Assembly (NCBI GenBank): GCA_022703445.1
Contig: JAKLDR010000003.1
Location: 36,407-100,406 of the forward strand
Direction: 5' to 3'
DNA: 64,000 bases
Origin: Planctomycetota bacterium
GTDB lineage: Bacteria; Planctomycetota; SZUA-567; JAKLDR01
Shown: positions 43,201-64,000 of the stretch, in pieces
Numbering within the stretch: position 1 is the first letter of the stretch
Layout of the letters: each line of letters opens with the position of its first letter
Program-made: the position numbers and the translations under genes
Notes under the pieces: generated by a model
What the model was told of the DNA's origin: nothing
Databases searched by the model: none
What the model saw: the letters and a program-made list of their open reading frames with translations, nothing else

Positions 43201-44937
43201 GTCGGCCCAGGTGATCTGCAGGGTTGCGAGGTACCCCGCCTCCATACCGGCCCAGGCCACCGGCCGGACGGTCTTGGCCTCGTCGTCATCGGCGTAGCCG
43301 ATCCAAACCATGGCGTGGCCGCAGTCCTCGCTGACGATCCGGCAGACCTCCCTGAGGTACTGGCCCTCGTCCTCGGCGCGCAGCATGGCCTGATTGCTGT
43401 TGCTGATCGCCCGCAGGGCGCGGTTGAGCTTGCGGAGTTCGGCCTCATGGGCGTCGCGCTCGGCCAGCAACCGGGCCAGCTTGATGTTGCCGTAGCTCAG
43501 CTGCGAGATCATCCGGGCCAGCTTCAGGAAGAAGCGCATGCCCGTTTCCACCGCCTCACGGCTCAAGCGCGGCACCCGGTCGAGCGCGGCCAGGTAGCCT
43601 GCCTCGTCGAACCCGTAGCGCCGGGACTGCGATCTGAAGAGCTCGCGATCGGGCTGTTCGTCATCGAAGAAGAACTGGCCCATGAACACGTTGCCGACGT
43701 GCCGCTCGCCGATCATGATCGGCGTCGAGACGTCCCACATGTGGTTCTTGCACTTGTAGAGCTTGAACTCTCCCGCCGGCACGTCCTTGGTCAACAACAG
43801 GTCGCTCTCGACGCAGTTGCGGCAGGTCTCGGGATGCACGCGGTGGAACTGCGTGCAGATGTCCTGCCAGCCCTCGCCGACCAGCACCTTGCCCTTGAGG
43901 TCGATGATGGCCATGGGCACGCCGACCAGCTTGTGGAACTCGTCCATCAGCGACTGGATGGCCCCGGCGTCGATGATGTCGGACAGCTCCAGATGGCCAA
44001 CATCGCCCTCGGGGGTCAGGATGCTCTCGAGTTTGCGGCGGACACGCTCCTCGCTCTCCCGCAGGGCCTCCTGCGCGCGGCGCTTGTCGGTGGCGTCGTG
44101 GAAGACCAGCACCGCGCCGGTCACGACGCCGGCCGCGTCGCGAATGGGGGCGGCGCTGTCCTCGATGGGCACCTGGCGGCCGTCGCGGGAAATCAGAGCG
44201 GTGTGGTTGGCCAGGGCGATTACCTTGCCCTCACGGAGCACGCGGGTGAAGACGTCTTCGCCAGGCGCCCCGGTCTGCTCGTCGACAATCCGGAACACCT
44301 CCTGCGCCGGCCGGCCGATGGCCTCCGCCTCGGGCCAGCCGGTCAGTTCCGAGGCGCTCGGGTTGATGAACGCGATCTTCCCGGAGGAATCGGCCGCCAG
44401 CACGGCATCGCCGATGCTGACCAGCGTGACCCGCAGCCATTCGCGCTGCTGAGCGAGCGCCTCCCGGCTCTCGCGCAGCGCCGCTTCGCGGTCGTAGGCC
44501 GCCGCCTTGGTCCGGTCGCGCCGGTAGAGCGCGGCGACGGCGCTCATGAACAGGCCCATGCCGGCGAAGATGACCAGCCCCAGGCGTTCGACGGGTGACT
44601 CGACGGCCAGCCCTTCCGGAGGAAGGATCCACAGCGCCGTGGCCAGCATGGACAGGGCGGTGGCCAGCAGGCCCGGCCAGAAACCGGCCAGCAGCGCCGC
44701 GGCCATGACCATGGGATAGAACGTGATGTAGGTGGGCAGTCCGGGGCCGACCCAGGCGGTCAGCGCCAGCCGCAGGCCCAGCCCAGCCGCCGCCGCCGCC
44801 GCCGCCAGGCCGAAGCGCCACGCCCACCCGAGCGGCGCCTGCGGCCGGAGGCCCGCCGGGAACGGAGCGATCAGCCCGATCCATCGGCTCAGGACGTTCT
44901 GGTCGGACGATCCGGGTGCTTCTGAGTCAGGCGTCAT
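40267..44937 (-). CDS. Hybrid sensor kinase: TM sensor - PAS - PocR - GAF - PAS - PAS - GAF - HisKA - HATPase - REC
   Basis: H-box GGVAHDFNNLM, N-box NLAANARDAM, GTGLGL; PocR-like WQDICTQFHR..HPET..NC; REC DLLLSDVVLP. Confidence 0.9.
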   Translation of the reverse strand: MTPDSEAPGSSDQNVLSRWIGLIAPFPAGLRPQAPLGWAWRFGLAAAAAAAGLGLRLALTAWVGPGLPTYITFYPMVMAAALLAGFWPGLLATALSMLATALWILPPEGLAVESPVERLGLVIFAGMGLFMSAVAALYRRDRTKAAAYDREAALRESREALAQQREWLRVTLVSIGDAVLAADSSGKIAFINPSASELTGWPEAEAIGRPAQEVFRIVDEQTGAPGEDVFTRVLREGKVIALANHTALISRDGRQVPIEDSAAPIRDAAGVVTGAVLVFHDATDKRRAQEALRESEERVRRKLESILTPEGDVGHLELSDIIDAGAIQSLMDEFHKLVGVPMAIIDLKGKVLVGEGWQDICTQFHRVHPETCRNCVESDLLLTKDVPAGEFKLYKCKNHMWDVSTPIMIGERHVGNVFMGQFFFDDEQPDRELFRSQSRRYGFDEAGYLAALDRVPRLSREAVETGMRFFLKLARMISQLSYGNIKLARLLAERDAHEAELRKLNRALRAISNSNQAMLRAEDEGQYLREVCRIVSEDCGHAMVWIGYADDDEAKTVRPVAWAGMEAGYLATLQITWADTERGRGPTGTAIRTGRPTGCRNMLVDPAFAPWCEDARRRGYASSVVLPLLEGGKAFGAINVYSQEPDAFSEDETRLLAELAGDLSQGIAALRARAERARAEQALQAAHGKLAIAQQSAGAGAWDWDLATARLDWSPELYRLFGLDPSRKVADFDTWREIMHPDDRQAAEERGNAAIRDGTRLNNEYRVVLPSGEVRWISAVGETSRDGNGKAVRMSGLCFDITERKRGEEALASARAEAELRAAEVQTLLDAAPVAVWIAHDPRCLRITGNSYADALVMRVPRGANISASASPGDAATTYKAFRDGVELRPEELPAQVAAATGRPVANETIELRFPDGRVLSLLMSAVPLFDAHGRVRGAVATGMDISERKRAEENLRRSNWRNDVLAKTAGELLKAGSPQATVEGLCREVMAFLDCQAFFNFLADKPSGRLRLNACAGIPEEEAREIQWLDYGVAVCGCAAQSAQRIVAENIQETPDPRTELVKSYGIQAYACHPLMAQGEVLGTLSFGTRTRPRFAADELSLMKAVADLVSIAIQRQRAEQALQQHRERLEELVRERTNELERLVGTLREEIAERERAEAGLRKATEQLAHSQKLEAVGRLAGGVAHDFNNLMTVVTGYGRRVLRDGGLGAGHRSAVEQMTKAGEQAVNLTRQLLAFSRKQVINPVVLDLNETVDGMRKMLPTVLGEDIAVAFELQSDPWPVLADPTQIAQVIMNLAANARDAMPAGGRFIIRTANIRIPAAASGGHGDIPPGRYALLAVADTGAGLSAEAREHLFEPFFTTKQVGDGTGLGLSSVYGIVQQSGGHIRVDSLAGRGTTFSIYFPAEGTENARGATNAAPNEPKAATPRGSETILLLEDEPSVCQLLTDELQELGYMVLPCRTAGDAIRKAEAREGPVDLLLSDVVLPGVSGPTLVKMLKDRGKVKRVLFMSGHAEKHIVQRGILADGVDFIGKPFTAEALAAKIREVLDRKTAQP

Positions 44938-45669: not shown

Positions 45670-45798
45670 CCTGCGTCGACCGCCAGCGCCATAGCGTTTG
45701 GCTCTGAACCGGGGCTACAGTCGACTTGCCCGGCATAGCCGATTGCGATGGTCGGGTGGGTGGACCATAGCGTTTGGCTGCGGTCACGGCATGGTCGG

Positions 45799-47979
45799 CT
45801 ATCGGCTGCAGACCGAGCGGACCTCCTCCATGGTGGTGTGGCCGGCCAGGTGCTTCTCGATCCCATCCTGCTTGAGGGTGCGCATGCCCTGGCTTGCGGC
45901 CACCTTGCGGATCTCCGCGGCGCTGGCCTGGCGGCAGACCAGCTCCTTGATCTCGTCGGTGGCCACCAGCAGTTCGTGCACCGCCATGCGCCCGCGGTAG
46001 CCCAGGTCTCCGCACTCCGGACAGCCGCCGGGACGCGCGGAGCAGACCGGCCGGGCCGGCGGAAAGCCCAGCGCGTCGAAGGCCTCGTCGGCCCGGTATT
46101 CCTGGCGAAGGGCCCCCAGCCGCCCGGCGGTCAGCGGCCCGGCCAGGCGGCAGCGCCGACAGAGGGTGCGCACCAACCGCTGAGCGAGCACCCCCAGGAG
46201 CGCATCCGAGAAGGAGTAGGGATCCAGGCCCAGATTCAGAAGCCGCACCACGGTCTCCGGCGCGCTGTTGGTGTGCAGGGTGGAGAACACCAGGTGCCCG
46301 GTGAGGCTGGACTCCACGGCGATGCCGGCGGTCTCCCGGTCGCGCATCTCCCCGATCATGATCACATCCGGGTCGGCGCGCAGGAAGGAGCGCAGCGCCG
46401 AGGCGAAGGTCACGCCCGCCTTGGGATTGACCTGCACCTGGCGCAGGCCAGGCTGGCTGATCTCCACCGGATCCTCCACCGTGAGTATCTTGACGTCGTC
46501 CCGGCTGATCTGGGCCAGGGCGCTGTGCAGCGTGGTGGTCTTGCCCGAGCCGGTCGGCCCCACGCACAGGACGATCCCGTAGGGCTGGTGGATGAGTCGC
46601 AGGAAGGCCTCGCGGTTCGCAGCGGACAGGGCCAACTCGTCGATGGGCCGGGCCTGGGCGGCCGCCAGGAGGCGCAGCACGGCGTCCTCGGCGCCCGCGA
46701 CCGTGGGATAGGTCTCCACCCGGATGTCCAGGTCCAGCTTGGCCCAACGCCGGAACTTGATCTTGCCGGACTGCGGCTTGCGCCGTTCGGCGATGTCCAG
46801 GTCGGCCATGATCTTGAGCCTGGAAATCAGGGCCTTGCCGTGCTTACGGGGCAGGCTCCCCGTCCGACGCATGATCCCGTCGACCCGGTAGCGCACCGCG
46901 CCATCGCCCTGCACGGCGGGTTCGAAATGGATGTCCGAGGCGCCGAGGGCGTGGGCTTCCTCGATCCGCTGGTTGACCAGCCGGGCGACCTCGCTGTCGT
47001 CCTCCAGGATGGAACGGTCCTCCTCCTCCTGGAGCGATGCCAGCTGCTCGGCGGACAGGCTGTCGACCAGATCGCCGGTGCCGGCGTCGTCCCGGGCGGG
47101 CTCCACCCCGGCCAGCCGGTCGAGGGCCGCAAGGATGTCCTCGGCCAGGGCCACGCGGCACTCCAGGGCCCCGCCGTCCAGCAGCGACCGGACGTGGTCG
47201 CGGGCGACAACGTCCTTGGGGTTGGCCATGGCCACCACGGTCTTCCAGCCAACGGTTGCCACCGGCACGCTCAGTGTGGACCGGAGCTGGTCGATGTGTT
47301 CCAGCACGGCCTGGCGGGGCGGTTCCGGCGGACTGGAGAAATCGTGGGCGGCGCAGCCGAAGAAGTCCTCCAGGCTGGCCAGCAGCTCAGCCTTGGGGAC
47401 CCCGTAGGCCCCGAGCAGGACCTGGTCGGCGGAGATGCCCTCCTCCTTGGCCACGCCCATGGCCATCTCCACCTGCCGCTCGGTGAGCACTCCGCGGTCG
47501 ATCAGACCCTGATGGCGGCTGCGGCGCCGGCCGAAGTCATCGATGCGATGGCTGTGGGCCTCGGTGGCGCTGCCAAGCTCGCTGAGGATCTTCGCGGCGG
47601 GCCCGGAGGGGGCGACGAAGTGCTCGAACAGCCGCGCCTCGATCATGAAGGTCTCGATCTCCTGGGCCATGGCCAGGGCCCGGAGCGCCGAGACCCCGTT
47701 GGCGTCCACGTCCTCCAGGCGGGAGCTGGTCTGCTCGACGGCCCGCAACACCAGGACGGTCAGCCGCCCGACATTGGCCGCGGTCAGCGCCTGCTCGTCG
47801 GCAATGGTCCGGAGCTGGCGGAGCAGCCTGCCGTGGCCCGCCTCTTCGGCGGCCAGCCGATCCCAGAACTCGCGCTGGCCGGAAAGCTTGGTGGCGAAGA
47901 TCTCGTAGAGCCGCTGGATCGCCTCCTCGTGGGCGGCGAGCAGCTCGATCAGCCGCAGGACTTCAGCGTTGCCTGGCAT
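45799..47979 (-). CDS. GspE/PilB-family ATPase with N-terminal ferritin/rubrerythrin-like domain
   Basis: GPTGSGKTT, TVEDPVE, RADPDVIMIGEMRD, GHLVFSTLHTN, CxxC..CxxC; N-terminal EExxH and ExxH helices. Confidence 0.88.
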   Translation of the reverse strand: MPGNAEVLRLIELLAAHEEAIQRLYEIFATKLSGQREFWDRLAAEEAGHGRLLRQLRTIADEQALTAANVGRLTVLVLRAVEQTSSRLEDVDANGVSALRALAMAQEIETFMIEARLFEHFVAPSGPAAKILSELGSATEAHSHRIDDFGRRRSRHQGLIDRGVLTERQVEMAMGVAKEEGISADQVLLGAYGVPKAELLASLEDFFGCAAHDFSSPPEPPRQAVLEHIDQLRSTLSVPVATVGWKTVVAMANPKDVVARDHVRSLLDGGALECRVALAEDILAALDRLAGVEPARDDAGTGDLVDSLSAEQLASLQEEEDRSILEDDSEVARLVNQRIEEAHALGASDIHFEPAVQGDGAVRYRVDGIMRRTGSLPRKHGKALISRLKIMADLDIAERRKPQSGKIKFRRWAKLDLDIRVETYPTVAGAEDAVLRLLAAAQARPIDELALSAANREAFLRLIHQPYGIVLCVGPTGSGKTTTLHSALAQISRDDVKILTVEDPVEISQPGLRQVQVNPKAGVTFASALRSFLRADPDVIMIGEMRDRETAGIAVESSLTGHLVFSTLHTNSAPETVVRLLNLGLDPYSFSDALLGVLAQRLVRTLCRRCRLAGPLTAGRLGALRQEYRADEAFDALGFPPARPVCSARPGGCPECGDLGYRGRMAVHELLVATDEIKELVCRQASAAEIRKVAASQGMRTLKQDGIEKHLAGHTTMEEVRSVCSR

Positions 47980-48024
47980 TCAGGTCTTCGCGTCCCCTCA
48001 CGGCCCGGCTTCGGGCGGGCGGAC

Positions 48025-49392
48025 TCAGCGCGGCACAGGCTGCGGCCGGAAGCGGCTGGCGCCCTGGACCATGCAGGTGCGCACCCAGGCCTGCTCGTTG
48101 CCGTCCGGGAAGTGGTCGATCTGGCAGTGCAGATGGTGCTCACCCTCGTACTCGACGGGCTCGACCCGCTGCGGCGTGCACCCCATGTTCAGGGACCGGT
48201 TCAGGCTGGGGCAGTCCACCTGGATGTCCATGCGCAGGGCCTCCTCCGCGATGCGCCCGGCGCTCACGCCGCCGGGCAGCGGTCCGACCAGCAGGAGCTC
48301 CGAGGCGGATATCTCGCGGGTCAGACCGAAGCTGGGCCCGTTGTCCACCGGGGCCTTGCGTTGGCTGTCCAGGAAGCGGTACTCCGCCCGGAGTTGGGCG
48401 GGGAAGCGCAGCAGATAGCGGGCCGGGCCCTCCGTCTGGTTGTAGACCAGCTTGCGCCAGGCGGCCATGGCCGACTCGGGGGCCACGCACACCCGGATCC
48501 GGCGGCCCAGTCCCGCGCGGAGTTCCTCGACCGCGGCCGGGGCGGGCGGGACGCCCATGGCCAGGGTCACGGCGCCGTCCTGCTCGCCGAGCGGGATGGA
48601 GTGGTGCTTCATGAGCAGGTGCCGGGGCAGCGCGGCGGCCAGCTTCAGGTCCGGCTTCTCGACACCCGGGTCGGCGAAAGGCAGCCGGGCCTGCTCGGCC
48701 AGGGCCCTGGCCACGGCGGCCTCGTCGACCAGGCCGCGCTGGACCAGTTCCTGCCCGATGGGGTGTATCCCGGAGAACTCATCCTTGAGAAACCGCTCGA
48801 AGCGCATCGGGTCCAGAGCCCCGTTGTGCAGCAGAATCTCGCCCAGGAAGAGCTTGTCCCGGCCGGCGTCCGGCGGCGCATCCGACCCGGTCGGGACGGA
48901 GGACGCCCGCTCCGCGGAGCTTTCCGGTTTCCCGGAATCGGAGAGGGCCTTCTCCGACCGGCCGGGCTCGTGCTGGCTGGCCCCTGTCGACAGAGGCTCC
49001 GTGCGCCAGACGCGCAGTTTGGTCATGGCCAGCGAGACCAGCACCTCCTTGAGTCGCTCGCGGATGCCGGCATCCAGCCCCAGGAAACTGACGCCCACGC
49101 CCACCCGCCCACGGCGGTCGCGCGGATCGATCCGGTGGACGATGCTCCAGACCTCGAAACCCCGACTCTCGCCTTCCACCTTCAGATGGAACCCCATTCC
49201 GTCGCCGATCTGCAGGGGGAAGCGGGCCTCCTCCGGCCAGTCGAAGAGCAGGTGCACGCCGCCATCGCTGATGTCGGCCACCAGCGCCTGGTCCGGCAGC
49301 GTCCCGCAGCGCTCGCAGGTGAACCCCGCGGCGCTGCTCAGCTTGGAGGTCAGGCGCACACCCTGGCGCCGCTCCGCCCTCGATTCGATCAT
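48025..49392 (-). CDS. PilZ - MshEN/GspE-N - PilZ-like protein
   Basis: ERRQGVR...DISDGG; LFLGEILL and IGQELVQRGLV; RFPAQL...REISAS. Confidence 0.72.
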   Translation of the reverse strand: MIESRAERRQGVRLTSKLSSAAGFTCERCGTLPDQALVADISDGGVHLLFDWPEEARFPLQIGDGMGFHLKVEGESRGFEVWSIVHRIDPRDRRGRVGVGVSFLGLDAGIRERLKEVLVSLAMTKLRVWRTEPLSTGASQHEPGRSEKALSDSGKPESSAERASSVPTGSDAPPDAGRDKLFLGEILLHNGALDPMRFERFLKDEFSGIHPIGQELVQRGLVDEAAVARALAEQARLPFADPGVEKPDLKLAAALPRHLLMKHHSIPLGEQDGAVTLAMGVPPAPAAVEELRAGLGRRIRVCVAPESAMAAWRKLVYNQTEGPARYLLRFPAQLRAEYRFLDSQRKAPVDNGPSFGLTREISASELLLVGPLPGGVSAGRIAEEALRMDIQVDCPSLNRSLNMGCTPQRVEPVEYEGEHHLHCQIDHFPDGNEQAWVRTCMVQGASRFRPQPVPR

Positions 49393-49432
49393 GGCTGGCC
49401 CTCCCGGCTGCGGACTCACGATGACGTCCTGG

Positions 49433-49448
49433 AGCAAGGCTCGTGCCA
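49433..49448 (-). promoter_or_regulatory. sigma54 (-24/-12) promoter
   Basis: TGGCACG-AGCC-TTGCT on the minus strand, full consensus. Confidence 0.85.
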
Positions 49449-49542
49449 TCGGAGCCCTGCCTGGAAACCGGGCGGAACGGCCGTTATGCCTCATCGATTG
49501 CGATGGTGGACGGCAGCGCCTCTAGTCTTTGGAATCGGTCCT

Positions 49543-49570
49543 TTGACAAGGGGAGGGAATAACTTACACT
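49543..49570 (+). promoter_or_regulatory. sigma70 promoter of the kinase/activator pair
   Basis: TTGACA (49543-49548) - 16 nt - TACACT (49565-49570) in an AT-rich patch. Confidence 0.65.
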
Positions 49571-49609
49571 GCGAAGCCGTAAAGCACCCGGAAGGCGGGA
49601 TAGCGATCT

Positions 49610-50380
49610 GTGGACCAGGCCATAGTGAACAGCGGCGACACGGCGGCGAAATTCGCTGGACCCCGGCGGCGGGAGCGCGATGTGCAGGCCCCTGGCCGGG
49701 AGCAGGCTCTGGTGCTTAGCGAGCTGGCCTCCAGCCTGGCCCACGAGATGAAGAACCCCCTGGCGGGCATGATGCTTTCGGCCGGCCGCCTGGAGCGGGC
49801 GCTGCACCAAGACGAGAAGCTCGGGCTCATCGCCGGATCCCTGTGCGCGTCCATCCGCGCCCTGTCCGATACCGTGGACCGCATAACCGGGGCGATGGGC
49901 CAGCCGGAGCCGAACCTGGAACCGATGGATCTCAACCGGGCCATAGAGGATGCGGCCGGGGTCATCGAGCGCCAGGCCGAGGCCCAGGGGATCAGGATCG
50001 TCCGGGCGCTGGCCCCGGGAATCCCCGCGGTCCGCGGTGACCCGGCGCTGCTCGGGTGTGCGCTCCGGAACATCCTGGCCAACGCCGTCGAGGCCATGCC
50101 CTCCGGGGGCGTCCTGCGCCTGGAGTCGCGGGCCACGCCGGAGGGCGGGGCCGAGGCGCTCGTCGCGGACAGCGGTCCGGGCGTGCCTCCCGAGCTGGCC
50201 GCCAATCCCTTCAAGCCGTTCCGCTCCACCAAGCCGGGCCGGGCCGGGCTGGGGCTGAGCTTGGTGCGCCGGGTGCTGGAGCTGCACGGCGGCGAGGCCG
50301 GGCTGCGCCCGGGCGCGGGCGGCGGGACCGAGGCGGTGCTCGCGTTCCCCGCGGCCGGAGAGGGCGGTCGACCGGCATGA
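49610..50380 (+). CDS. Histidine kinase (HisKA + HATPase) without an evident sensor domain
   Basis: LAHEMKNPLAGM, NILANAVEAM, DSGPGV, GLGLSLV. Confidence 0.88.
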   Translation: MDQAIVNSGDTAAKFAGPRRRERDVQAPGREQALVLSELASSLAHEMKNPLAGMMLSAGRLERALHQDEKLGLIAGSLCASIRALSDTVDRITGAMGQPEPNLEPMDLNRAIEDAAGVIERQAEAQGIRIVRALAPGIPAVRGDPALLGCALRNILANAVEAMPSGGVLRLESRATPEGGAEALVADSGPGVPPELAANPFKPFRSTKPGRAGLGLSLVRRVLELHGGEAGLRPGAGGGTEAVLAFPAAGEGGRPA

Positions 50381-51735
50381 GGACTCCGCCCAGGATCCTG
50401 GTCATCGAGGACGACACCGACGTCCGCGAGCAGTTGCTGGCCACCTTCCGCGACGAGGGCTACGAAGTCACGGCCTGCGGCACGGTCCGGGAGGGCAAGG
50501 CCCTCCTGAAGAGCACCGGCTTCGCCCTGGTGACCACCGACCTGCGCCTGCCCGACGCCAGCGGCCTGGAGGTGGTGCGGCACATCCAGGCCTCCTGCCC
50601 GGACTGTCCGGTCCTGGTGCTCACCGCCTTCGCCAGCGTCGACTCGGCGGTCGAGGCCATGCGCCACGGGGCGTTTCACTACCTGGCCAAGCCCTTCTCG
50701 GTGAACGGCCTGTTGGTCGAGGTCGAGCGGGCCCTGGAGCACGCGCGGCTGCTCCGCGAGCGGAGCCAGCTCCGGGAGCGGCTCTCGGCCGAGAGCGGCC
50801 TGGGCCGCATCCTGGGCGGCAGTCCGGCCATCGAGTCGGTGCGCGGGCTGATCCGCGAGGTGGCCAGGACCTCCACCACCGTGCTGATCACCGGCGAGAC
50901 CGGGACCGGCAAGGAACTGGTGGCCAACGCCCTGCACTACGAGAGCCCCCGGGCCACCGGTCCGCTGGTCAAGCTGAACTGCGCTGCGCTCACCGAGACC
51001 CTGCTGGAGTCGGAGCTCTTCGGTCACGAGAAGGGCGCCTTTACCGGGGCCGAGCGCTCCCGTGCGGGCCGGTTCGAGCGGGCCGACGGCGGGACCCTGT
51101 TCCTGGACGAGATATCGGAGATGGGCCCCCACGTCCAGGCCAAGCTGCTGCGGGTGCTCCAGGGCGAGGCTTTCGAGCGGGTGGGCGGCGACCAGCCGCT
51201 GCGGCCGGACGTCCGGTTGGTGGCCGCCACCAACCGTGATCCGCAGCAGGCGGTCGCGGAGGGCAAGCTGCGCCAGGACCTGTTCTTCCGGCTGAACATC
51301 GTCTGCGTCGAAGTCCCCCCGCTCCGGAAGCGGCCCGAGGACATCCCGCTGCTGGCCAGGCACTTTCTGGGGATCTTCGCGGACCGGTTCGGCAGAGGCC
51401 AGGCCTCCCTGGACGACGAGGCGCTCAACGCCCTGTGCGCCTACCCGTGGCCCGGGAACGTCCGGGAGCTGGAGAACTGCATCGAACGGGCGGTGATCGT
51501 GGCGCAGGACGGCACCGTGCGCCGGCGGAACCTCCCCGCGCCCATCAGCGGGATCGAAGCAGAGCCGCCCGGCGCGCCCCTGAACCTCGAAGCCCTGGAG
51601 AAGCGGGCCATCCTGCAGGCCCTGCGCGAAACGGGCGGCAACAAGTCCCAGGCCGCCGCCAAGTTGGGGATCTTCCCCTCTTCCCTTTATAAGAAGATGA
51701 AACGCTTTGACATACCTCTGCAGCCTGAACCGTAG
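50377..51735 (+). CDS. sigma54-dependent response regulator (NtrC/AtoC type)
   Basis: REC domain; GETGTGKE; GAFTGA; FLDEI; WPGNVRELEN; Fis-type HTH. Confidence 0.95.
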   Translation: MRTPPRILVIEDDTDVREQLLATFRDEGYEVTACGTVREGKALLKSTGFALVTTDLRLPDASGLEVVRHIQASCPDCPVLVLTAFASVDSAVEAMRHGAFHYLAKPFSVNGLLVEVERALEHARLLRERSQLRERLSAESGLGRILGGSPAIESVRGLIREVARTSTTVLITGETGTGKELVANALHYESPRATGPLVKLNCAALTETLLESELFGHEKGAFTGAERSRAGRFERADGGTLFLDEISEMGPHVQAKLLRVLQGEAFERVGGDQPLRPDVRLVAATNRDPQQAVAEGKLRQDLFFRLNIVCVEVPPLRKRPEDIPLLARHFLGIFADRFGRGQASLDDEALNALCAYPWPGNVRELENCIERAVIVAQDGTVRRRNLPAPISGIEAEPPGAPLNLEALEKRAILQALRETGGNKSQAAAKLGIFPSSLYKKMKRFDIPLQPEP

Positions 51736-51823
51736 CCTTCGGCCATGGCCGCGTCTGCCGGACACAGCTGAAGTGTACGCTCGTAGCCTCTGCGCAGCAC
51801 ACCCCCACCGCAGCCTGATTCCG

Positions 51824-52358: not shown

Positions 52359-52550
52359 ATGAAGGTCCTGGTCGACGCCAACCTCTGCGAGGGATGCGGC
52401 CCGTGCGAAGAGGTCTGCCCGGAGGTGTTCCGGATAGTCGACAACCTCGCCCGGGTCATAGCCGATCCGGTGCCCCCCGAGTCCGAAGGGGCCTGCCGTC
52501 AGGCGGTCGAGAGCTGTCCGACCAACGCCATATCCGTTGTGGAAGAGTAG
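52359..52550 (+). CDS. Ferredoxin (single cluster type)
   Basis: CEGCGPCEEVCPEVF...CPTNAI; GGGAGG RBS. Confidence 0.9.
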   Translation: MKVLVDANLCEGCGPCEEVCPEVFRIVDNLARVIADPVPPESEGACRQAVESCPTNAISVVEE

Positions 52551-52585
52551 GATCACATCGAGCCGAAGAGGCGTCGGGACCAAAC

Positions 52586-53152
52586 ATGCAGGTAATTGGC
52601 CCGTTGATGATCGAGCACCGCCTGATCGGGCGCATGCTCGCGCTCGTGCGCCTCGAACTGGAGGGTGTCCGGCGCGGCCGACCGCTGAACCCCGGCTTCG
52701 TCCAGGCGGCGGTCGACTTCATCCGCGTCTATGCGGACCGGGTCCATCACGGCAAGGAGGAGGACCTTCTGTTCCGCGAACTGGCCCGGAAGAGCCTGAC
52801 GCCGCCTGACCGGGCGGCGATGGATGAGCTGGTCAGGGAGCACGCCTGGGCGCGCAAGCGCGCCGGAGAACTGGCCGGCGCCTCCGAGCGGCTGGCCGGG
52901 GGTGGTTCGGGGGCTGCCGACGATATCGCCAAGGCTCTCCTGGACCTGGTCGAGTTCTACCCGAAGCACATCGAACGCGAGGACCGAAGGTTCTTCCCCG
53001 CTGCCACGGCGTACCTCTCCGAGCAGGAGCAGCAGGCCATGCTCCGGGAGTTTGCGGATTTCGACCGCGGTCTGATCCACGAGATATACAGGGGGCTGGT
53101 CGCCAGCCTCGAGATGGCCCGATTGCCGGGGCAAGAGCCGGAATCAGATTAG
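52586..53152 (+). CDS. Hemerythrin/HHE cation-binding domain protein
   Basis: EHRLI, HHGKEEDLLF, EHAWAR, HIEREDRRFFP. Confidence 0.88.
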   Translation: MQVIGPLMIEHRLIGRMLALVRLELEGVRRGRPLNPGFVQAAVDFIRVYADRVHHGKEEDLLFRELARKSLTPPDRAAMDELVREHAWARKRAGELAGASERLAGGGSGAADDIAKALLDLVEFYPKHIEREDRRFFPAATAYLSEQEQQAMLREFADFDRGLIHEIYRGLVASLEMARLPGQEPESD

Positions 53153-57496: not shown

Positions 57497-59017
57497 GTGG
57501 ACCTCAAGGCCCTCGGACGGAACACCCTGATCTACGCCGTCGGCAACATCGGGCTGCGCGCCGTGGCCTTCCTGCTCATCCCGCTCTACGCCCACCTGCT
57601 TTCCCAACCCGACTTCGGGATGCTCTACACCATCTTCTTCACCATGCAGATCATGCTGGTGCTCATGAACCTGGGCGTCCGCGAGAGCCTGGTCCGCTTC
57701 GCCAGCGAGGCCGGGCGCGCCGGCCGGATGGGCACACTGCTGGGCAGCTGCCTGCTGGTCAACCTGGCCGGCGGGGCGCTGGTGACCGGCGCAGCCATGG
57801 CCTTCCTGCTCCCCTTCCTCGGCGGGCTGCTCCACGTCGAAAACCCCGGGCGCTATGTGCTGCTGGCTTCGGCCATCACCCTGGCCCAGGTGCTCACCAA
57901 CCAGATGCTCAACTACTTCCGGGCCATCAACTCGGCCCTGCGGTTCATGGCCGCCGGGCTCTGCGTGGCCGTCGCGCTGGTCATCGCCAACGTCCTGCTG
58001 CTCGGGGTCTTCCACATGGGCATCATCGGGGCGCTGGTCGCCCAGCTGATCGTCTACGGACTGGCCTTCGCGGTGCTGGCGGCGCTGATCCTCCCCCGAC
58101 TGGGCCTGGGCGCCTCCCGGCAGGTGCTCCGCCAGGTGCTGGCCTTCGGCTCCCCCCTGGTGCTCTCCGAGTTCGCCTGGTCGGTGATGATCGCCGTGCC
58201 CGCCTACTTCCTGAGTTACCACGTGGGTCTGGCCGAAGTGGCCACCTACTCGCTGGGCGTGCGCCTGGCCCAGGTGGTGACCATCGTGCTGATCCTCCCG
58301 TTCCAGCTGGCCTACGCCCCCTACGTCTTCGCGCACCTGGACAACGCCGCCATCCGCCAGTCCATGAGCCGGGTGCTGACCTACCTGGTGCTGGCCTTCG
58401 GCGCGGTGGCCTTCGCGGTGCTGACCGGCTCGCGCTTCCTGGTGCCCCTGATCGTGCCGGCGGGCTATTCCGGGGCGGTGCTGGTGCTGCTGATGATGCT
58501 GCCGGCCGTCGGCTTCGAGGCGCTCTATGCCTTCTCGTCGACGCTGCTGCTCATCAGGCGCCGAAGCCGCGTCGCCGGGGGGCTCGCCGTGCTGGCCGGA
58601 GGAATCAGCCTGGGGCTGAATCTGGCATTGGTTCCGGCTTTCGGCCTGTACGGGGCCATCCTGGTTGTGAACCTGGCCACCGGCTTCATGGCCCTGGCGG
58701 TGCTCATTGCCGGGCTGCGCACCTACCCCTTGCGGCTGGAGGTGAAGCGCATGACCGTGGGCCTGGCCGCCTTCGCCGGGCTGGGCCTGCTCTTCCTGGC
58801 CGCGCGCGAGGCTTCCCCCCCGGCTTTCATCGCGGCAGTGGTCCTGCCGGGCCTGGCCGTTCCGGTGCTGCTCTACGTCAGCGGTTTCTTCGACCCGTCC
58901 GAGAAACGCGGCATCCGCGACGTTCTCGGGAGGAAGATCTCCTTCTGGAGACGCCCGGCCGCCCGGCCGGCGTTGCCTTCGCGGCTGGCGCAGGTTCTGC
59001 CTTCGGACCGGGTTTGA
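57497..59017 (+). CDS. Oligosaccharide flippase (Wzx family)
   Basis: LGRNTLIYAVGN...LLIPLYAHLLS..DFG; many TM helices; ATYSLGVRLA. Confidence 0.88.
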   Translation: MDLKALGRNTLIYAVGNIGLRAVAFLLIPLYAHLLSQPDFGMLYTIFFTMQIMLVLMNLGVRESLVRFASEAGRAGRMGTLLGSCLLVNLAGGALVTGAAMAFLLPFLGGLLHVENPGRYVLLASAITLAQVLTNQMLNYFRAINSALRFMAAGLCVAVALVIANVLLLGVFHMGIIGALVAQLIVYGLAFAVLAALILPRLGLGASRQVLRQVLAFGSPLVLSEFAWSVMIAVPAYFLSYHVGLAEVATYSLGVRLAQVVTIVLILPFQLAYAPYVFAHLDNAAIRQSMSRVLTYLVLAFGAVAFAVLTGSRFLVPLIVPAGYSGAVLVLLMMLPAVGFEALYAFSSTLLLIRRRSRVAGGLAVLAGGISLGLNLALVPAFGLYGAILVVNLATGFMALAVLIAGLRTYPLRLEVKRMTVGLAAFAGLGLLFLAAREASPPAFIAAVVLPGLAVPVLLYVSGFFDPSEKRGIRDVLGRKISFWRRPAARPALPSRLAQVLPSDRV

Positions 59018-59160
59018 TGTCCGATCATTTCGTTTGACCAGCTCGCGAGCATCGGAAGTGTATGCCCACTCGGGCTGCGGCGGCCGATTGGGAATGCCGC
59101 GGACCTGCATCCCGAACAATTGCCAGCTCATCCATGAACACCCCGGAGCCGCGACCGCCA

Positions 59161-59176
59161 TGGCATGGACCTTGCT
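59161..59176 (+). promoter_or_regulatory. sigma54 (-24/-12) promoter
   Basis: TGGCATG-GACC-TTGCT upstream of ATG 59211. Confidence 0.78.
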
Positions 59177-59210
59177 CAACGGCCCCCTCGGGAAAGGCGG
59201 TGCTCCGACC

Positions 59211-60026
59211 ATGCATCCTCAAGGCAGGGCAATCATCCGGAGCGCCGTCGTCCCCGTGGCCGAACCATCCTCGAGTTCCGGTTCGGCCAGGAGCGCGGCA
59301 TATCTAGTATGCGTCGCCGCGCTCTTGCTGGCCGGGGCGGCGGGCTGTCGCGGGTCTTCGGTGGCGTCGAATCCCGCGTTGCCCGTCGACCCCGGCCCTA
59401 TACCGACTGTCCTGGTGCCGGGCGACACCATCGAGGTCAAGTTCTACTACACTCCGGAGCTCAACGACGTCCAGACCATCAGGCCCGACGGCAGGATCAT
59501 GCTCCATCTGGTCGGCGAGGTGGTCGCCAGTGGCAGGACGCCGGTCGAGCTGGCCAACGCGATCCGGGACCTGTACCTCAAACAGCTCCGCGAGCCCATG
59601 CCGGTGGTGCTGGTGCGCAGCTTCAGCACCAGGCGGGTCTACGTGATCGGCGAGGTGCTCACCCCCGGGGCGGTGGCCGTCCCCGGCGCGCCGCTGTCGG
59701 TGCTCGAGGCCGTGGCCCTCGCCGGCGGCCCCAATCCGCGGACCGCCGAGACCCGCAGCGTGCTGGTCATCCGCAGGATGCCCGACGGCCGCTGCCGGGG
59801 CTTCGGGGTCGATCTCAGCGGGACCCTGGCCGGCGGGTCCGCCGATATCGGCAGCCTTCAGCCGCAGGACATCGTGTATGTGCCGCGCACCCGGATCGTC
59901 GAGATCGACCAGTGGATCAACCAGCACATCAACCAGATCATCCCCCGGCTGGGGCTGATCTACACGTACACCTCGGGCGGCGTGACTTCCGGGGTGAACC
60001 TGAGCAACGGAGTGGCCGGCCCCTGA
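59211..60026 (+). CDS. Polysaccharide export lipoprotein (Wza family)
   Basis: LLAGAAGC lipobox; LVPGDTIEV...IRPDGRI; VYVIGEV; LQPQDIVYVP. Confidence 0.88.
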   Translation: MHPQGRAIIRSAVVPVAEPSSSSGSARSAAYLVCVAALLLAGAAGCRGSSVASNPALPVDPGPIPTVLVPGDTIEVKFYYTPELNDVQTIRPDGRIMLHLVGEVVASGRTPVELANAIRDLYLKQLREPMPVVLVRSFSTRRVYVIGEVLTPGAVAVPGAPLSVLEAVALAGGPNPRTAETRSVLVIRRMPDGRCRGFGVDLSGTLAGGSADIGSLQPQDIVYVPRTRIVEIDQWINQHINQIIPRLGLIYTYTSGGVTSGVNLSNGVAGP

Positions 60027-60077
60027 TGGCCCGTCGGCGCGGTGCCGGGGCGGTCAGAAGTCCGGTTGGAGGCGACC

Positions 60078-62411
60078 ATGGCCACCGACAGTGAGCAGCG
60101 CGGTAGAGCCACGGCCGGCGACCTGCGCGATGTCGCCGGCGTGCTCTTTCGCCGCGCGTGGCTGATCGCCGGCTCGATCGCCGTGGTCGTGGGCCTGAGC
60201 GCCGCGGTGCTGGCCGTGCTGGGCAGCGTCTACCGCTCGGAGGCCAAACTGCTGGTGCGCGTCGGCCGGGAGAGCGTGGCTCTGGACCCCACCGCCACCA
60301 CCGGACAGATGGTCAGCCTGGCCCTGAACCGCGTCAACGAGATCAACTCGGAGATCGAGATCCTCACCAGCCGGCAGCTGGCCAGCCGGGTGGTGGCCGA
60401 CATCGGCGCGGGGAACATCCTCCGGCCGGCAGGCCGCTGGTCCGGGATGGCCGCGGCCGTCGCCGACGAGGGGGCCGCCCCGGGCGATCAGCAGGACGAC
60501 TCCGGGATGCAGCGCGCTGTGGACGCATTCGCCAAGCGCCTGGAGGTCCGGGCGATCAAGGACAGCAGCGTCCTGACCGTCTCCTACGAGGCGGCCGACC
60601 CGCTCATGGCCCAGGAGGTGCTGCAGAAGCTGCTGGCCAACTACCTCGATGCGCACATCACCGCGCACCGCACAGCCGGGTCGCTGGGATTCTTCGCGCG
60701 CGAGACCACGGCGCTCGGCGAGAGCCTCGGCCGCACCGAACTGGCCCTCCGGGACCTCAAGAACGAGTCCGGGATCGTCTCCGTAGAGGCCCAGCGCGAG
60801 ACGCTCTCGCAGCGCCTGGCCGAGCTCAACCAGGCCTCCAGCCGCAACCGGACCGCCCTGGCCGTCTCCCGGGCGCGGCTGGCCGTCCTCTTGAAGCAGC
60901 TGGCCGCGCAGCCTGCCATGGTCCTGGCCCAGGAGAACACCGGCATGGCCGGCACCGCGGTGGAGTTCATGCGCCAGAAACTCTACGAACTGCAGACCGA
61001 GGAGCAGGCGCTCCTGATCCGCTACATGCCGGAGAGCGCCCCGGTGACCAGCATCCGCAGGCAGATCGAGGAGTCCAAGGTCATCCTGGCGCGCGAGGAG
61101 TCCGGCCACAAGGAGATCCACCTGGAGGCCAACGTGGTCCGCCGGGAACTGGAGCTCAAATCCCTGGCCGAGCAAGACAACCTGGCCGCGCTCGAGGCCG
61201 AGGGCGCCGCACTGGCCGGCAACCTGGCCGCGGCGAGCGACACGCTGCGGACGCTCAACGAGGTCACCCGGCGCAGCGCGCAGCTCGAGCGGCAGCGGGA
61301 CTTCGAGAAGGCCATGCTGGAAGGCTATGCCGGCAAGAGCGAGCAGGCCCGGATCGACCAGGAACTGGAGGCCCAGCGGATCTCCAACATCAGCGTGCTC
61401 CAGGCGGCAACGCTCCCGGACAAGCCGGTGCGCCCTAACAAGTCGCTGGTGCTGGCCCTGGCCCTGCTGCTGGGCCTGACCGGCGGGCTGGCCCTGGCCT
61501 TCACGGTTGACCGCCTGGACCACTCCTTCCACGGCCCCCAGGACCTGGAGCGGGCCATTTCCGCCCCGGTGCTCACCGCGGTGCCCCGCGCCGGAACGCC
61601 GGTAGTGCTGCTCGATGCTCTGGTCGCCCAGGGCAAGCCAGCCGCCAAAGCGCCGGCCCTCACGGTGCTCGCCCTGGACGGTCCGCCTGCACCTTCCGCA
61701 CCGGCCACGTCCGCCGCCGGTTCCCGGCCCACGGACGGTACGGATCCCGGCGCCAGCAGGAGGCACCACCGCCACCATCGGCACATGCGGCGCCAGTTGG
61801 ATGCCTACGACGAGCTGCGCGACGAACTGATGATCCTGCGGGGCGGGACCCTGCCGGCCACCTTCGGTGTGCTCGGGCCCACCGGCGGGGAGGGTGCCAG
61901 CACGGTGGCCACCAATCTGGCCATCAAGCTGGCCGGCAGCGGCGACGGCCCGGGGCTGCTGGTGGATTGCCACCTGGACCGGCCGGCCATGCACGACATG
62001 TTCGACCTGCCCCTGTCACCCGGCTTGGGCGAGTTGATCAGCGGGCGCGTGGCCGACGGGGCGCTGATCCGGTCGCCCCTCCCGCACCTGGACGTGCTGA
62101 CCGCCGGCCGGACCGGACGCTTCCTGCCCATGACCCAGAAACTGCAAGCGCTGAGGCTGCTCCTGGGCGAGTGGAAGAAGCGCTACCGTTTCGTGGTGCT
62201 GGATCTGCCGCCCGCCTGTGGTGCGGGCAGCGCGGTGCGCAAGGCCAGCCTGCTTGACGGGGTGGTCATGGTGGTCCAGGCCGAACGCTCGCGCCGCGAG
62301 ATCGTGGAGCGCGCCTGGCGGCTGCTGACCACGGCCAAGATCGAACTTCTCGGCCTGGTCCTCAATCAGCGCCGGTTCCCGCTTCCCCAGTGGCTGTACG
62401 AAAGACTCTGA
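60078..62411 (+). CDS. Polysaccharide co-polymerase (Wzc/GumC-like) with a degenerate tyrosine-kinase domain
   Basis: GGAGG RBS; two TM helices flanking a coiled coil; GEGAST in place of GEGKST; LLVDC; VVLDLPP. Confidence 0.88.
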   Translation: MATDSEQRGRATAGDLRDVAGVLFRRAWLIAGSIAVVVGLSAAVLAVLGSVYRSEAKLLVRVGRESVALDPTATTGQMVSLALNRVNEINSEIEILTSRQLASRVVADIGAGNILRPAGRWSGMAAAVADEGAAPGDQQDDSGMQRAVDAFAKRLEVRAIKDSSVLTVSYEAADPLMAQEVLQKLLANYLDAHITAHRTAGSLGFFARETTALGESLGRTELALRDLKNESGIVSVEAQRETLSQRLAELNQASSRNRTALAVSRARLAVLLKQLAAQPAMVLAQENTGMAGTAVEFMRQKLYELQTEEQALLIRYMPESAPVTSIRRQIEESKVILAREESGHKEIHLEANVVRRELELKSLAEQDNLAALEAEGAALAGNLAAASDTLRTLNEVTRRSAQLERQRDFEKAMLEGYAGKSEQARIDQELEAQRISNISVLQAATLPDKPVRPNKSLVLALALLLGLTGGLALAFTVDRLDHSFHGPQDLERAISAPVLTAVPRAGTPVVLLDALVAQGKPAAKAPALTVLALDGPPAPSAPATSAAGSRPTDGTDPGASRRHHRHHRHMRRQLDAYDELRDELMILRGGTLPATFGVLGPTGGEGASTVATNLAIKLAGSGDGPGLLVDCHLDRPAMHDMFDLPLSPGLGELISGRVADGALIRSPLPHLDVLTAGRTGRFLPMTQKLQALRLLLGEWKKRYRFVVLDLPPACGAGSAVRKASLLDGVVMVVQAERSRREIVERAWRLLTTAKIELLGLVLNQRRFPLPQWLYERL

Positions 62412-62438
62412 CCGGCCGGGCAGGAAGGAGACCAGCGC

Positions 62439-63638
62439 ATGTCATTCTGGAGAAGTATCCACGGCCTCCTGCCCACCGCCCCACGGCGCGAGGAGGAGGG
62501 CCTCGCCTCCGGGGCCGCGATGCACCGGTTGCTGGAGCAGGAACGCGCCCGCGCCGAGCGGACCGGGTTGGAGTTCTCACTGCTGACCTTCCATGTTCCG
62601 GCCGGCGAGGAGGGCCGGCGGCTCGTGCCGCGACTGGCCGCCGAGCTGTCCAGTCGCGTGCGGGCCACCGACACGGTCGGCTGGCTGGACCAGGGCCGGG
62701 TCGGCGTGCTCCTGCCGGCGACCATCCCGCCGGGCGCCCACAGGTTGGGCGACGAGACCGTCAAGCGCATGGCGGCGCTGGGCTGGCCGGTGGAGTACCA
62801 TGTCTGCGTCTTCTCCGCGCACTGCCGGCCCTGGAACCCCGCCCGGGGCTCCGGAGACGGCAATGGCGACAGCGGACACCTTCGGGACGGCGATGCGGCC
62901 GAGGCCCTCCGCGGCCAGCCGACTTCGGACGCCGGCCACCTCCGCCCGGAGGACGACGAGCCCATGGAGCCGCTGTTCGCGGTGCGCACACCCCTATGGA
63001 AGCGGACCATGGACGTGGTCGGCGCTGCGGCCGGGCTGATCGCGCTCGCGCCGCTGATGCTGCTGGTGGCGCTGGCCGTGAAGCTGACTTCGCCGGGACC
63101 GGTGCTCTTCCGGCAGGAGCGGGTGACCGTGGCCGGCCGGATCTTCACCTTCCTGAAATTCCGGAGCATGCGCTCGGACAACGACGCCTCCGGACACCGC
63201 AACTACGTGGCCGGACTGATCCACTCCGACCGGCCCATGAGGAAGCTCGAGGACGACCCGCGCATCCTGTCCCTGGGCCGGTTCCTGCGCAGAACCTGCC
63301 TGGACGAACTGCCCCAGCTCATCAACGTGCTCCGCGGGGAGATGAGCCTGGTCGGCCCGCGGCCCTGCCTGCCCTACGAGGCGGCGGAGTACGCCCGCTG
63401 GCATGCGCGGCGTTTCGACCTGCTGCCAGGCATGACCGGGCTCTGGCAGGTAAGCGGCAAGAACGAGTGCACCTTCCGGGAGATGGTCCGGCTGGACATC
63501 GCCTATGCCCGGAGACTGTCCCTGTGGCTGGATCTAAAGATCCTGTTCAGAACCCCCCTGGCGGTGCTGGGCAGCGCCGGAGGCGCTCGCTCCCAGGCCA
63601 ACGCGATGAAGGGAATGGTCCATGAGCAATCGGCTTAA
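62439..63638 (+). CDS. Priming phosphoglycosyltransferase (sugar transferase) with N-terminal degenerate GGDEF domain
   Basis: KRTMDV, SPGPVLFRQER, FLKFRSM, DDPRI, LDELPQLINVLRGEMSLVGPRP; N-terminal EQERARAER...RATDTVGW...GVLLP. Confidence 0.88.
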   Translation: MSFWRSIHGLLPTAPRREEEGLASGAAMHRLLEQERARAERTGLEFSLLTFHVPAGEEGRRLVPRLAAELSSRVRATDTVGWLDQGRVGVLLPATIPPGAHRLGDETVKRMAALGWPVEYHVCVFSAHCRPWNPARGSGDGNGDSGHLRDGDAAEALRGQPTSDAGHLRPEDDEPMEPLFAVRTPLWKRTMDVVGAAAGLIALAPLMLLVALAVKLTSPGPVLFRQERVTVAGRIFTFLKFRSMRSDNDASGHRNYVAGLIHSDRPMRKLEDDPRILSLGRFLRRTCLDELPQLINVLRGEMSLVGPRPCLPYEAAEYARWHARRFDLLPGMTGLWQVSGKNECTFREMVRLDIAYARRLSLWLDLKILFRTPLAVLGSAGGARSQANAMKGMVHEQSA

Positions 63639-64000
63639 CCTCGCCGTGGTCGGATGCGGTTACTGGGGGCCCAATCTGGCCCGCAACTTCGACTCCCTGC
63701 CGACCTGCCGGCTGGGGGCCATCTGCGACTCGAGCCGCGAGCGCCTGGGCAAGGCGCTGGTCCGCCATCCCGCGGCGCGGCCGCTGGCGTCCTTCGACGA
63801 ACTCCTTAGCGACGGGGATCTGGAGGCCGTGGCCATCGCCACCCCGGTGCGCACCCACTATGAGCTGGCCCGGCGGGCGCTCGAGAGGGGCCTGCACGTC
63901 TTCATCGAGAAACCCATGACCTCCTCAACCGCCGAGGCCGAGGAGCTGGTCGCCCTGGCCGACAAGAAGGGCCTGGTCCTGATGGTCGGGCACGTCTTCG
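63622..64000 (+). CDS. Gfo/Idh/MocA family oxidoreductase (runs off the right edge)
   Basis: LAVVGCGYWGPNLARNF, AVAIATP, HVFIEKP, VLMVGHVF. Confidence 0.9.
   Translation, partial: MSNRLNLAVVGCGYWGPNLARNFDSLPTCRLGAICDSSRERLGKALVRHPAARPLASFDELLSDGDLEAVAIATPVRTHYELARRALERGLHVFIEKPMTSSTAEAEELVALADKKGLVLMVGHVF

Follow-up and report, generated by a model that had tools for sequence, protein, structure and literature searches.

Control of the synthase-dependent exopolysaccharide systems (cellulose, Pel, alginate and PNAG) by cyclic diguanosine monophosphate (c-di-GMP) is textbook knowledge. In the Pel system of Pseudomonas aeruginosa, PelD carries a catalytically dead GGDEF-type domain that keeps the RxxD motif and exerts post-translational control at the inner membrane, and it is a separate protein of transmembrane (TM), GAF and GGDEF domains. 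Its GGDEF fold has the full size, and it possesses a third arginine, R402. PssE of Listeria monocytogenes and YdaK of Bacillus subtilis are degenerate GGDEF proteins from exopolysaccharide (EPS) operons that act through the I-site; both are stand-alone and act on processive glycosyltransferases. Here we describe a gene of a Planctomycetota bacterium that encodes a much reduced GGDEF-derived domain, which we call mini-GGDEF, fused to a predicted phosphoglycosyl transferase of a Wzx/Wzy-dependent polysaccharide locus. It lies at 62439-63638 on the forward strand of the window, the whole 64,000-nucleotide (nt) stretch analysed, and coordinates are positions in the window unless a contig or locus is named.

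How Wzx/Wzy-dependent polysaccharide synthesis is controlled after translation is poorly understood (PMC12802240). In Myxococcus xanthus, the response regulator EpsW activates EpsZ, the initiating transferase of such a pathway, and small monotopic phosphoglycosyl transferases (monoPGTs) can carry fused regulatory domains, of which only receiver-domain fusions are named (PMC12802240). In the cyclase WspR, an intercalated c-di-GMP dimer is bound at the I-site between two GGDEF domains by R242 and R198, the latter coming from the neighbouring domain, and the R242A and R198A proteins each purify nucleotide-free (De et al. 2008, PMC2270323).

The present gene resembles PelD in the catalytically dead GGDEF-type domain with RxxD, and PssE and YdaK in that a degenerate GGDEF domain is encoded inside an EPS operon. 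Unlike in PelD, the domain has only ~100 amino acids (aa), without helix alpha1 and without the C-terminal third, and forms one protein with a Wzx/Wzy initiating transferase; the truncation goes far beyond that of PelD and PopA, and PssE and YdaK have no fusion to a phosphoglycosyl transferase. In a HMMER alignment with residues counted by hand, its R75 falls on R242 and its R41 on R198 of WspR. However, WspR and PleD are active cyclases whose site serves product inhibition, whereas the site of mini-GGDEF would have to be a receptor because no catalysis is left to inhibit.

On the transferase side, the domain matches Campylobacter PglC over its whole length, but PglC is the catalytic core alone without an N-terminal sensor domain. 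Post-translational control would fall on the same pathway step as with EpsZ and EpsW, although there a phosphorylated receiver domain that is not part of the enzyme acts on a large monoPGT dimer, without a GGDEF-derived domain or c-di-GMP. The extreme truncation, the covalent fusion to a small monotopic transferase and the Wzx/Wzy type of pathway are what distinguish this gene from the closest known systems. Its parts are as follows.

62423-62430, + strand: Shine-Dalgarno-like GGAAGGAG, 8 nt 5' of the ATG at 62439 (read from the sequence)
62439-63638, + strand: gene for mini-GGDEF, linker and small monotopic phosphoglycosyl transferase, 399 aa (open reading frame (ORF) list and translation)
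62508-62816, + strand: mini-GGDEF domain, aa 24-126, alpha0-beta1-alpha2-beta2-beta3-alpha3-beta4 (AlphaFold2, Foldseek, profile and BLASTP)
62541-62561, + strand: alpha0 motif E35-R-A-R-A-E-R41 (E35 and R41 invariant in A1, our alignment of 33 full-length relatives)
62655-62672, + strand: R73-V-R75-A-T-D78, an I-site-type RxxD with a family-specific extra arginine two residues upstream (alignments and family counts)
62688-62702, + strand: D84-Q-G-R-V88, at the position of the GG[DE]EF hairpin, motif lost (alignment to cyclases)
62817-62993, + strand: linker, aa 127-185, G/D-rich and largely disordered (predicted local distance difference test, pLDDT, <50 at aa 139-167)
62994-63578, + strand: small monotopic phosphoglycosyl transferase domain, aa 186-380, with a re-entrant helix at 186-217 (Pfam, NCBIfam and Foldseek)
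63303-63308, + strand: D289-E290 in DELPQL, putative catalytic dyad (codons gac gaa; both columns invariant in A1)

The N-terminal region escapes the standard domain models: aa 1-187 give no Pfam or NCBIfam match even at E<=10, and Pfam GGDEF (PF00990, cut-off 23.8 bits) has no match in the 399-aa protein at the same threshold. The N-domains of the A1 relatives were aligned as A2 and used as a profile. Run against all PDB sequences, A2 matches only entries containing a GGDEF domain below E 1e-3, the best being 3ign (E 6.5e-10), GcbC (5euh, 1.5e-9) and WspR (~1e-8), with DgcR and DosC also among them. A pairwise comparison by BLASTP with a PAS-GGDEF cyclase from a related genome (E 4e-8) gives the same register as the profile alignments, and across 301 genomes of the phylum the profile recovers canonical GGDEF genes at E 1e-7 to 1e-14.

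The Pfam GGDEF cut-off is passed by the tandem-domain relatives P0005 (31 bits) and P0053 (45 bits), so some family members may already be labelled GGDEF in the databases. PelD is absent both from the sequence matches listed for A2 against the PDB and from the top 50 Foldseek matches listed. A further PDB match from a single-sequence search, 3m33 at E 0.005, falls in the linker and is irrelevant.

The fold points the same way. Modelled with AlphaFold2 on the basis of A1, the full protein reaches a mean pLDDT of 85.9 and a predicted template modelling score (pTM) of 0.81, with pLDDT of 94-97 in the N-domain. Its elements there are alpha0 (25-42), beta1 (46-52), alpha2 (57-71), beta2 (79-84), beta3 (87-92), alpha3 (97-113) and beta4 (120-125). 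Among the top 50 Foldseek matches listed from the PDB, ranks 1-4 are PglC or WbaP and ranks 5-50 are solely GGDEF domains, including those of WspR, GcbC, PleD, SiaD and DosC (E 1e-5 to 4e-4, probability 1.0). They superpose with a root-mean-square deviation of ~3 A over 110-130 columns and template modelling scores of 0.5-0.64 on the target.

What has been lost is the catalytic part. The BLASTP and profile alignments leave a gap of 9-10 residues at helix alpha1, where the GTP/Mg segment of the cyclases in beta1-alpha1, DxDxFKxxND..GH..GD, is replaced by FHVPAGEEGRR, and everything from alpha4-beta5 onward is absent. At the hairpin, the family segment "ldekri" is aligned on the GGEEF of the cyclases in the comparison of A2 with the PDB. 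Because alpha1 with the GTP/Mg site is deleted, the GGDEF motif is lost and the C-terminal third is missing, the N-domain cannot act as a cyclase. Sequence and model together indicate a GGDEF derivative cut down to a ferredoxin-like core of ~100 aa, cytoplasmic, catalytically dead and fused to the transferase N-terminus.

A preliminary description of this gene had read RATD at 62661-62672 as an intact I-site motif, WLDQGR at 62682-62699 followed by GVLLP as the remains of the GGDEF motif, and the rest as a linker and a complete sugar-transferase domain. The translation puts R75-A-T-D78 and W82-L-D-Q-G-R87 at exactly these positions, with G89-V-L-L-P93 next, and the reading as a GGDEF-derived, catalytically dead domain before a complete transferase agrees with the profile search that the description had proposed, the Foldseek ranks and the Pfam match given below. 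The alignments also bear out the I-site assignment. RATD is aligned on the RxxD of genuine cyclases, where BLASTP and the A2 profile show RQSD, RSSD and RKVD, and five residues separate it from D84, which is the canonical RxxD spacing of receptors of the PelD, PopA, PssE and YdaK type.

The residues of this surface are among the best kept of the family. Among 174 domain copies, D78 is found in 99%, R75 in 94%, R73 in 91%, R41 in 90%, E35 in 92% and R38 in 85%, and other frequent positions are G81 (98%), P93 (93%), T95 (90%), A100 (89%), W82 (85%) and G99 (83%). The full motif RxRxxD occurs in 152 of the 174 copies, and neither GGDEF nor GGEEF in any. None of the 33 full-length proteins of A1 departs from E35, R41, R75, D78 or T95. 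Given such conservation in the relatives' copies, the RxxD evidently did not arise by chance, and the pattern indicates strong purifying selection on the I-site residues that contact c-di-GMP in WspR, continuing after catalysis was lost.

The fusion is not confined to this genome. We searched 1.84 billion representative sequences (clusters at 50% identity) with aa 24-145, and 862 clusters match the N-domain at E<=1e-3, 60 of them at E<=1e-10. Architecture was surveyed in the best 150 of the 862 representatives. Forty-eight of these are at least 300 aa long with the N-domain, and 47 carry the transferase domain; the single one without it, P0120, resembles a frameshifted gene call. The N-domain is present once in 40 of the long representatives, twice in six and three times in two.

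In the 101 shorter representatives of the 150, the domain begins at about residue 31 and the protein ends ~38 residues past it, which fits gene calls truncated on short contigs, though stand-alone forms may be among them. In the tandem-module relatives P0005, P0053, P0009-P0012 and P0015, RxRxxD is found in nearly every copy and the alpha0 arginine in most. The true family (E<=1e-17) is present in 12 of the 301 sampled genomes of the phylum. One representative match, P0030, is a repetitive He_PIG protein and no relative; of the weak tblastn matches in related genomes, L005 and L006 are spurious on inspection and L003 and L007 carry in-frame stops.

The survey of the fusion, also proposed in the preliminary description, presents it as a widespread, unannotated and apparently undescribed family, with the present gene as another member. 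Full-text literature searches found no published description of a fusion of mini-GGDEF and phosphoglycosyl transferase, which accords with the earlier impression of an uncharacterised control point. The 2024 follow-up to the monoPGT network study makes no mention of GGDEF.

In the transferase half, Pfam Bac_transf (PF02397) covers aa 188-377 over profile positions 1-178 of 179 at E 1.4e-63, and Foldseek matches PglC (8g1n/8e37) at E ~8e-13 with 34-36% identity and WbaP (8t53) at E 6e-10. NCBIfam TIGR03025 is matched in its C-terminal part at E 4.3e-81, with 273 bits against a cut-off of 295. In general, the NCBIfam models of the large monoPGTs (WbaP/WcaJ/EpsZ) match solely over their C-terminal ~190 positions and below their cut-offs. 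The AlphaFold2 model predicts no TM helix before aa 186, and the N-terminal four-TM bundle and DUF/CoA-binding-like domain of the large monoPGTs are absent.

An Asp-Glu pair, a PRP motif and a proline of the re-entrant helix have known roles in PglC-type catalysis. We take D289-E290 to be the equivalent of the PglC catalytic dyad; P307-R308-P309 and P205 of the re-entrant helix are invariant in A1. The linker before the domain varies in length and sequence among the relatives. The gene appears to encode the initiating phosphoglycosyl transferase, with a small monotopic PglC-type core, of a Wzx/Wzy exopolysaccharide locus.

Our favoured explanation is that c-di-GMP binds the dead GGDEF remnant and directly gates the initiating transferase, as the preliminary description had suggested, a proposal that we hold to be evenly balanced. 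In its favour are the GGDEF ancestry and fold of the domain, the conserved I-site surface, the breadth of the fusion, the EPS operon and the GGDEF genes of the genome. Intercalated c-di-GMP would bind R75 and D78 of the RxxD, aided by R73 and K/R102, and a second N-domain would complete the site with its alpha0 R41, on the pattern of WspR and PleD. The second N-domain could come from another transferase molecule or, in the two- and three-domain relatives, from a tandem copy. Binding would shift the position of the N-domain on the transferase core, or its pairing of cores, and thereby switch the transfer of sugar-1-phosphate to undecaprenyl phosphate. Activation at high c-di-GMP would be the likeliest direction, as in other c-di-GMP-controlled exopolysaccharides.

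A broader form of this proposal is that the whole family is an unrecognised and widespread class of c-di-GMP receptors, in which an intercalated c-di-GMP dimer links the RxxD site (R75/D78) of one module with the alpha0 R41 of another and switches the transferase on. This we put forward tentatively, as a possibility on the doubtful side. If true, Wzx/Wzy pathways would gain their first example of a second messenger that directly switches the first membrane-committed step. A messenger switch on the initiating transferase would be an economical control because this enzyme draws on the scarce undecaprenyl-phosphate pool. If mini-GGDEF binds c-di-GMP, it adds a receptor class missed by the standard domain searches, and would, across hundreds of lineages, connect biofilm signals with pathways for capsule, EPS or O-antigen-type polymers.

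Several observations weigh against gating by c-di-GMP. No proven GGDEF-type receptor is nearly as small as the N-domain. The position that we take to be equivalent to PleD R390, the third primary I-site residue, is E106 here (by a hand count), and is Asp or Glu in 61% of the 174 copies. Basic residues are frequent only a helical turn before it, with K/R102 in 56% of copies and R102 in this protein. The C-terminal YxYP motif of the family is lost here and in the genus orthologues, where it reads CVFS. Moreover, the conservation of W82, D84 and T95-x3-G99-A100 might just as well reflect contact with the transferase core or with a partner protein.

The genome adds further points on this side. The operon here has no cyclase gene as a neighbour, the nearest one lying 29 kb downstream, and neither a c-di-GMP riboswitch nor any other Rfam family is found in the window or the 40 kb downstream of it. 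At least four GGDEF genes occur in each of the 12 other family-bearing genomes tested, which comprise 11 from the phylum survey and G001 from the same genus, but ~83% of the genomes of the phylum have a GGDEF match, so a co-occurrence of 12 in 12 has a p of ~0.1 by chance. The co-occurrence is consistent with the c-di-GMP proposal, weakly and without discriminating it from others.

The strongest competing explanation, which we consider possible if rather unlikely, is that the domain is a ligand-free GGDEF relic reused as a structural module. Its task would be to dimerise the transferase or to dock it to a partner, for which the Wzc-like co-polymerase, the glycosyltransferase that acts next and a regulator are candidates. 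RxRxTD-GW and ExxRxxR would then form a protein-protein or interdomain interface. The high pTM of the model despite a 30-aa disordered linker suggests, indirectly, that in the model the N-domain is docked on the transferase core, and W82, F46 and Y125-P126 are conserved without an I-site role and point to packing surfaces. The tandem copies would also suit a scaffold, and the regulation of EpsZ by EpsW offers a precedent for control of an initiating transferase through protein-protein contact (PMC12802240). However, conservation is strictest in just those two arginines and that aspartate whose counterparts bind c-di-GMP in WspR, and an interface need not keep this trio at this spacing across hundreds of lineages after catalysis was lost.

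Alternatively, the same pocket might sense another ligand, such as (p)ppGpp, GTP, another cyclic dinucleotide, or the UDP-sugar substrate or product, giving a metabolic readout. GGDEF domains are able to bind further nucleotides: by their entry titles, the PDB structures 9g85 and 9g86 are PleD with c-di-GMP and (p)ppGpp, and the extra R73 together with the acidic R390-equivalent makes the pocket something other than a plain copy of the canonical I-site. On the other hand, the GTP-binding half of the domain is deleted, and we know of no RxxD site in a domain without the A-site that selects a ligand other than c-di-GMP. We judge this improbable.

That the N-domain is a chance resemblance or a mis-called N-terminus, the real protein being the transferase core alone, is refuted: for all the lack of Pfam and NCBIfam matches and the start of P0002 at M28, the profile, pairwise and fold searches each give significant matches, in every case to GGDEF, the domain recurs in the 862 clusters, and a start at M28 would still keep the whole domain, while the orthologue conserves aa 1-12.

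The start itself can be assigned. P0002 is a shorter alternative gene call. The same-genus orthologue P0003, of 390 aa and equal architecture, keeps the N-terminal peptide MS[FL]W[RK]xIHG[LM]LP, which makes up the first twelve residues. Because of this peptide and of GGAAGGAG upstream of the ATG, the true start is that of the long form, at 62439 rather than at M28. A word-indexed protein search with aa 1-185 recovered only the window's own protein and one orthologue.

The neighbouring genes of the operon are listed next.

57497-59017, + strand: Wzx-type flippase (Pfam Polysacc_synt, E 1e-16)
59034-60026, + strand: Wza-type outer-membrane export protein (Pfam Poly_export and SLBB)
60042-62411, + strand: Wzc-like polysaccharide co-polymerase with a degenerate ParA/BY-kinase-like C-terminal domain (Pfam Wzz, GNVR and ParA)
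63622-64000, + strand: GFO/IDH/MocA sugar oxidoreductase, running past the window end (Pfam)

Upstream and codirectional are GlmS, two unassigned ORFs, Wzx, Wza and the Wzc-like co-polymerase, whose gene ends 27 nt 5' of the transferase gene. The start of the oxidoreductase gene overlaps the stop of the transferase gene by 17 nt, so the two belong to one operon. Farther downstream on the contig, Pfam identifies after the oxidoreductase a Wzy, a GT4 glycosyltransferase, a polysaccharide deacetylase, a FemAB/GNAT-like protein and a DegT aminotransferase. The locus is a complete Wzx/Wzy-dependent polysaccharide locus, and its product is probably an amino-sugar-containing polymer. The order of the EPS genes is conserved in the sister species GCA_036768975.1.

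The co-polymerase shows a Walker A motif of GPTGGEGAST, with Ala in place of the Lys of the BY-kinase GK[ST]. It has no C-terminal tyrosine cluster, and the His/Arg-rich RRHHRHHRHMRR precedes its kinase-like domain. If this kinase is dead, control of the locus by tyrosine phosphorylation is unlikely.

Canonical c-di-GMP synthases are encoded in the organism's own genome: of its nine GGDEF genes of the canonical kind, eight keep GG[DE]EF intact and six have RxxD at the canonical spacing. The cyclase nearest to the operon, of 309 aa with a canonical GGEEF, lies on contig C223 at 128064-128973 (+) and has the I-site RATD as in mini-GGDEF, probably a coincidence. In the sister species, a membrane cyclase of the DUF4118-GGDEF type (L022:555-1430, -) lies 8.5 kb upstream of the orthologous transferase gene, where the syntenic EPS locus has its edge; no DUF4118-GGDEF gene is found at the corresponding place in this window.

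Further genes of note lie around the locus. Downstream of it, at L008:11016-15103 (-), ~111.0-115.1 kb of contig C223, a sigma54-dependent NtrC-type regulator (REC-PAS-AAA-HTH) adjoins a PAS hybrid histidine kinase, and the two may be transcriptional regulators of the adjoining polysaccharide genes. Within the window, 40267-44937 (-) encodes a hybrid sensor kinase of 1556 aa with DUF4118, PAS, PocR, two GAF, PAS, HisKA, HATPase and REC domains. A hemerythrin-domain protein of 252 aa is encoded at 52394-53152 (+), just 5' of glmS. Two long ORFs, at 45748-49719 (+, 1323 aa) and 49564-51765 (-, 733 aa), have no Pfam match and, at this G+C content, may be real orphan genes or shadow ORFs.

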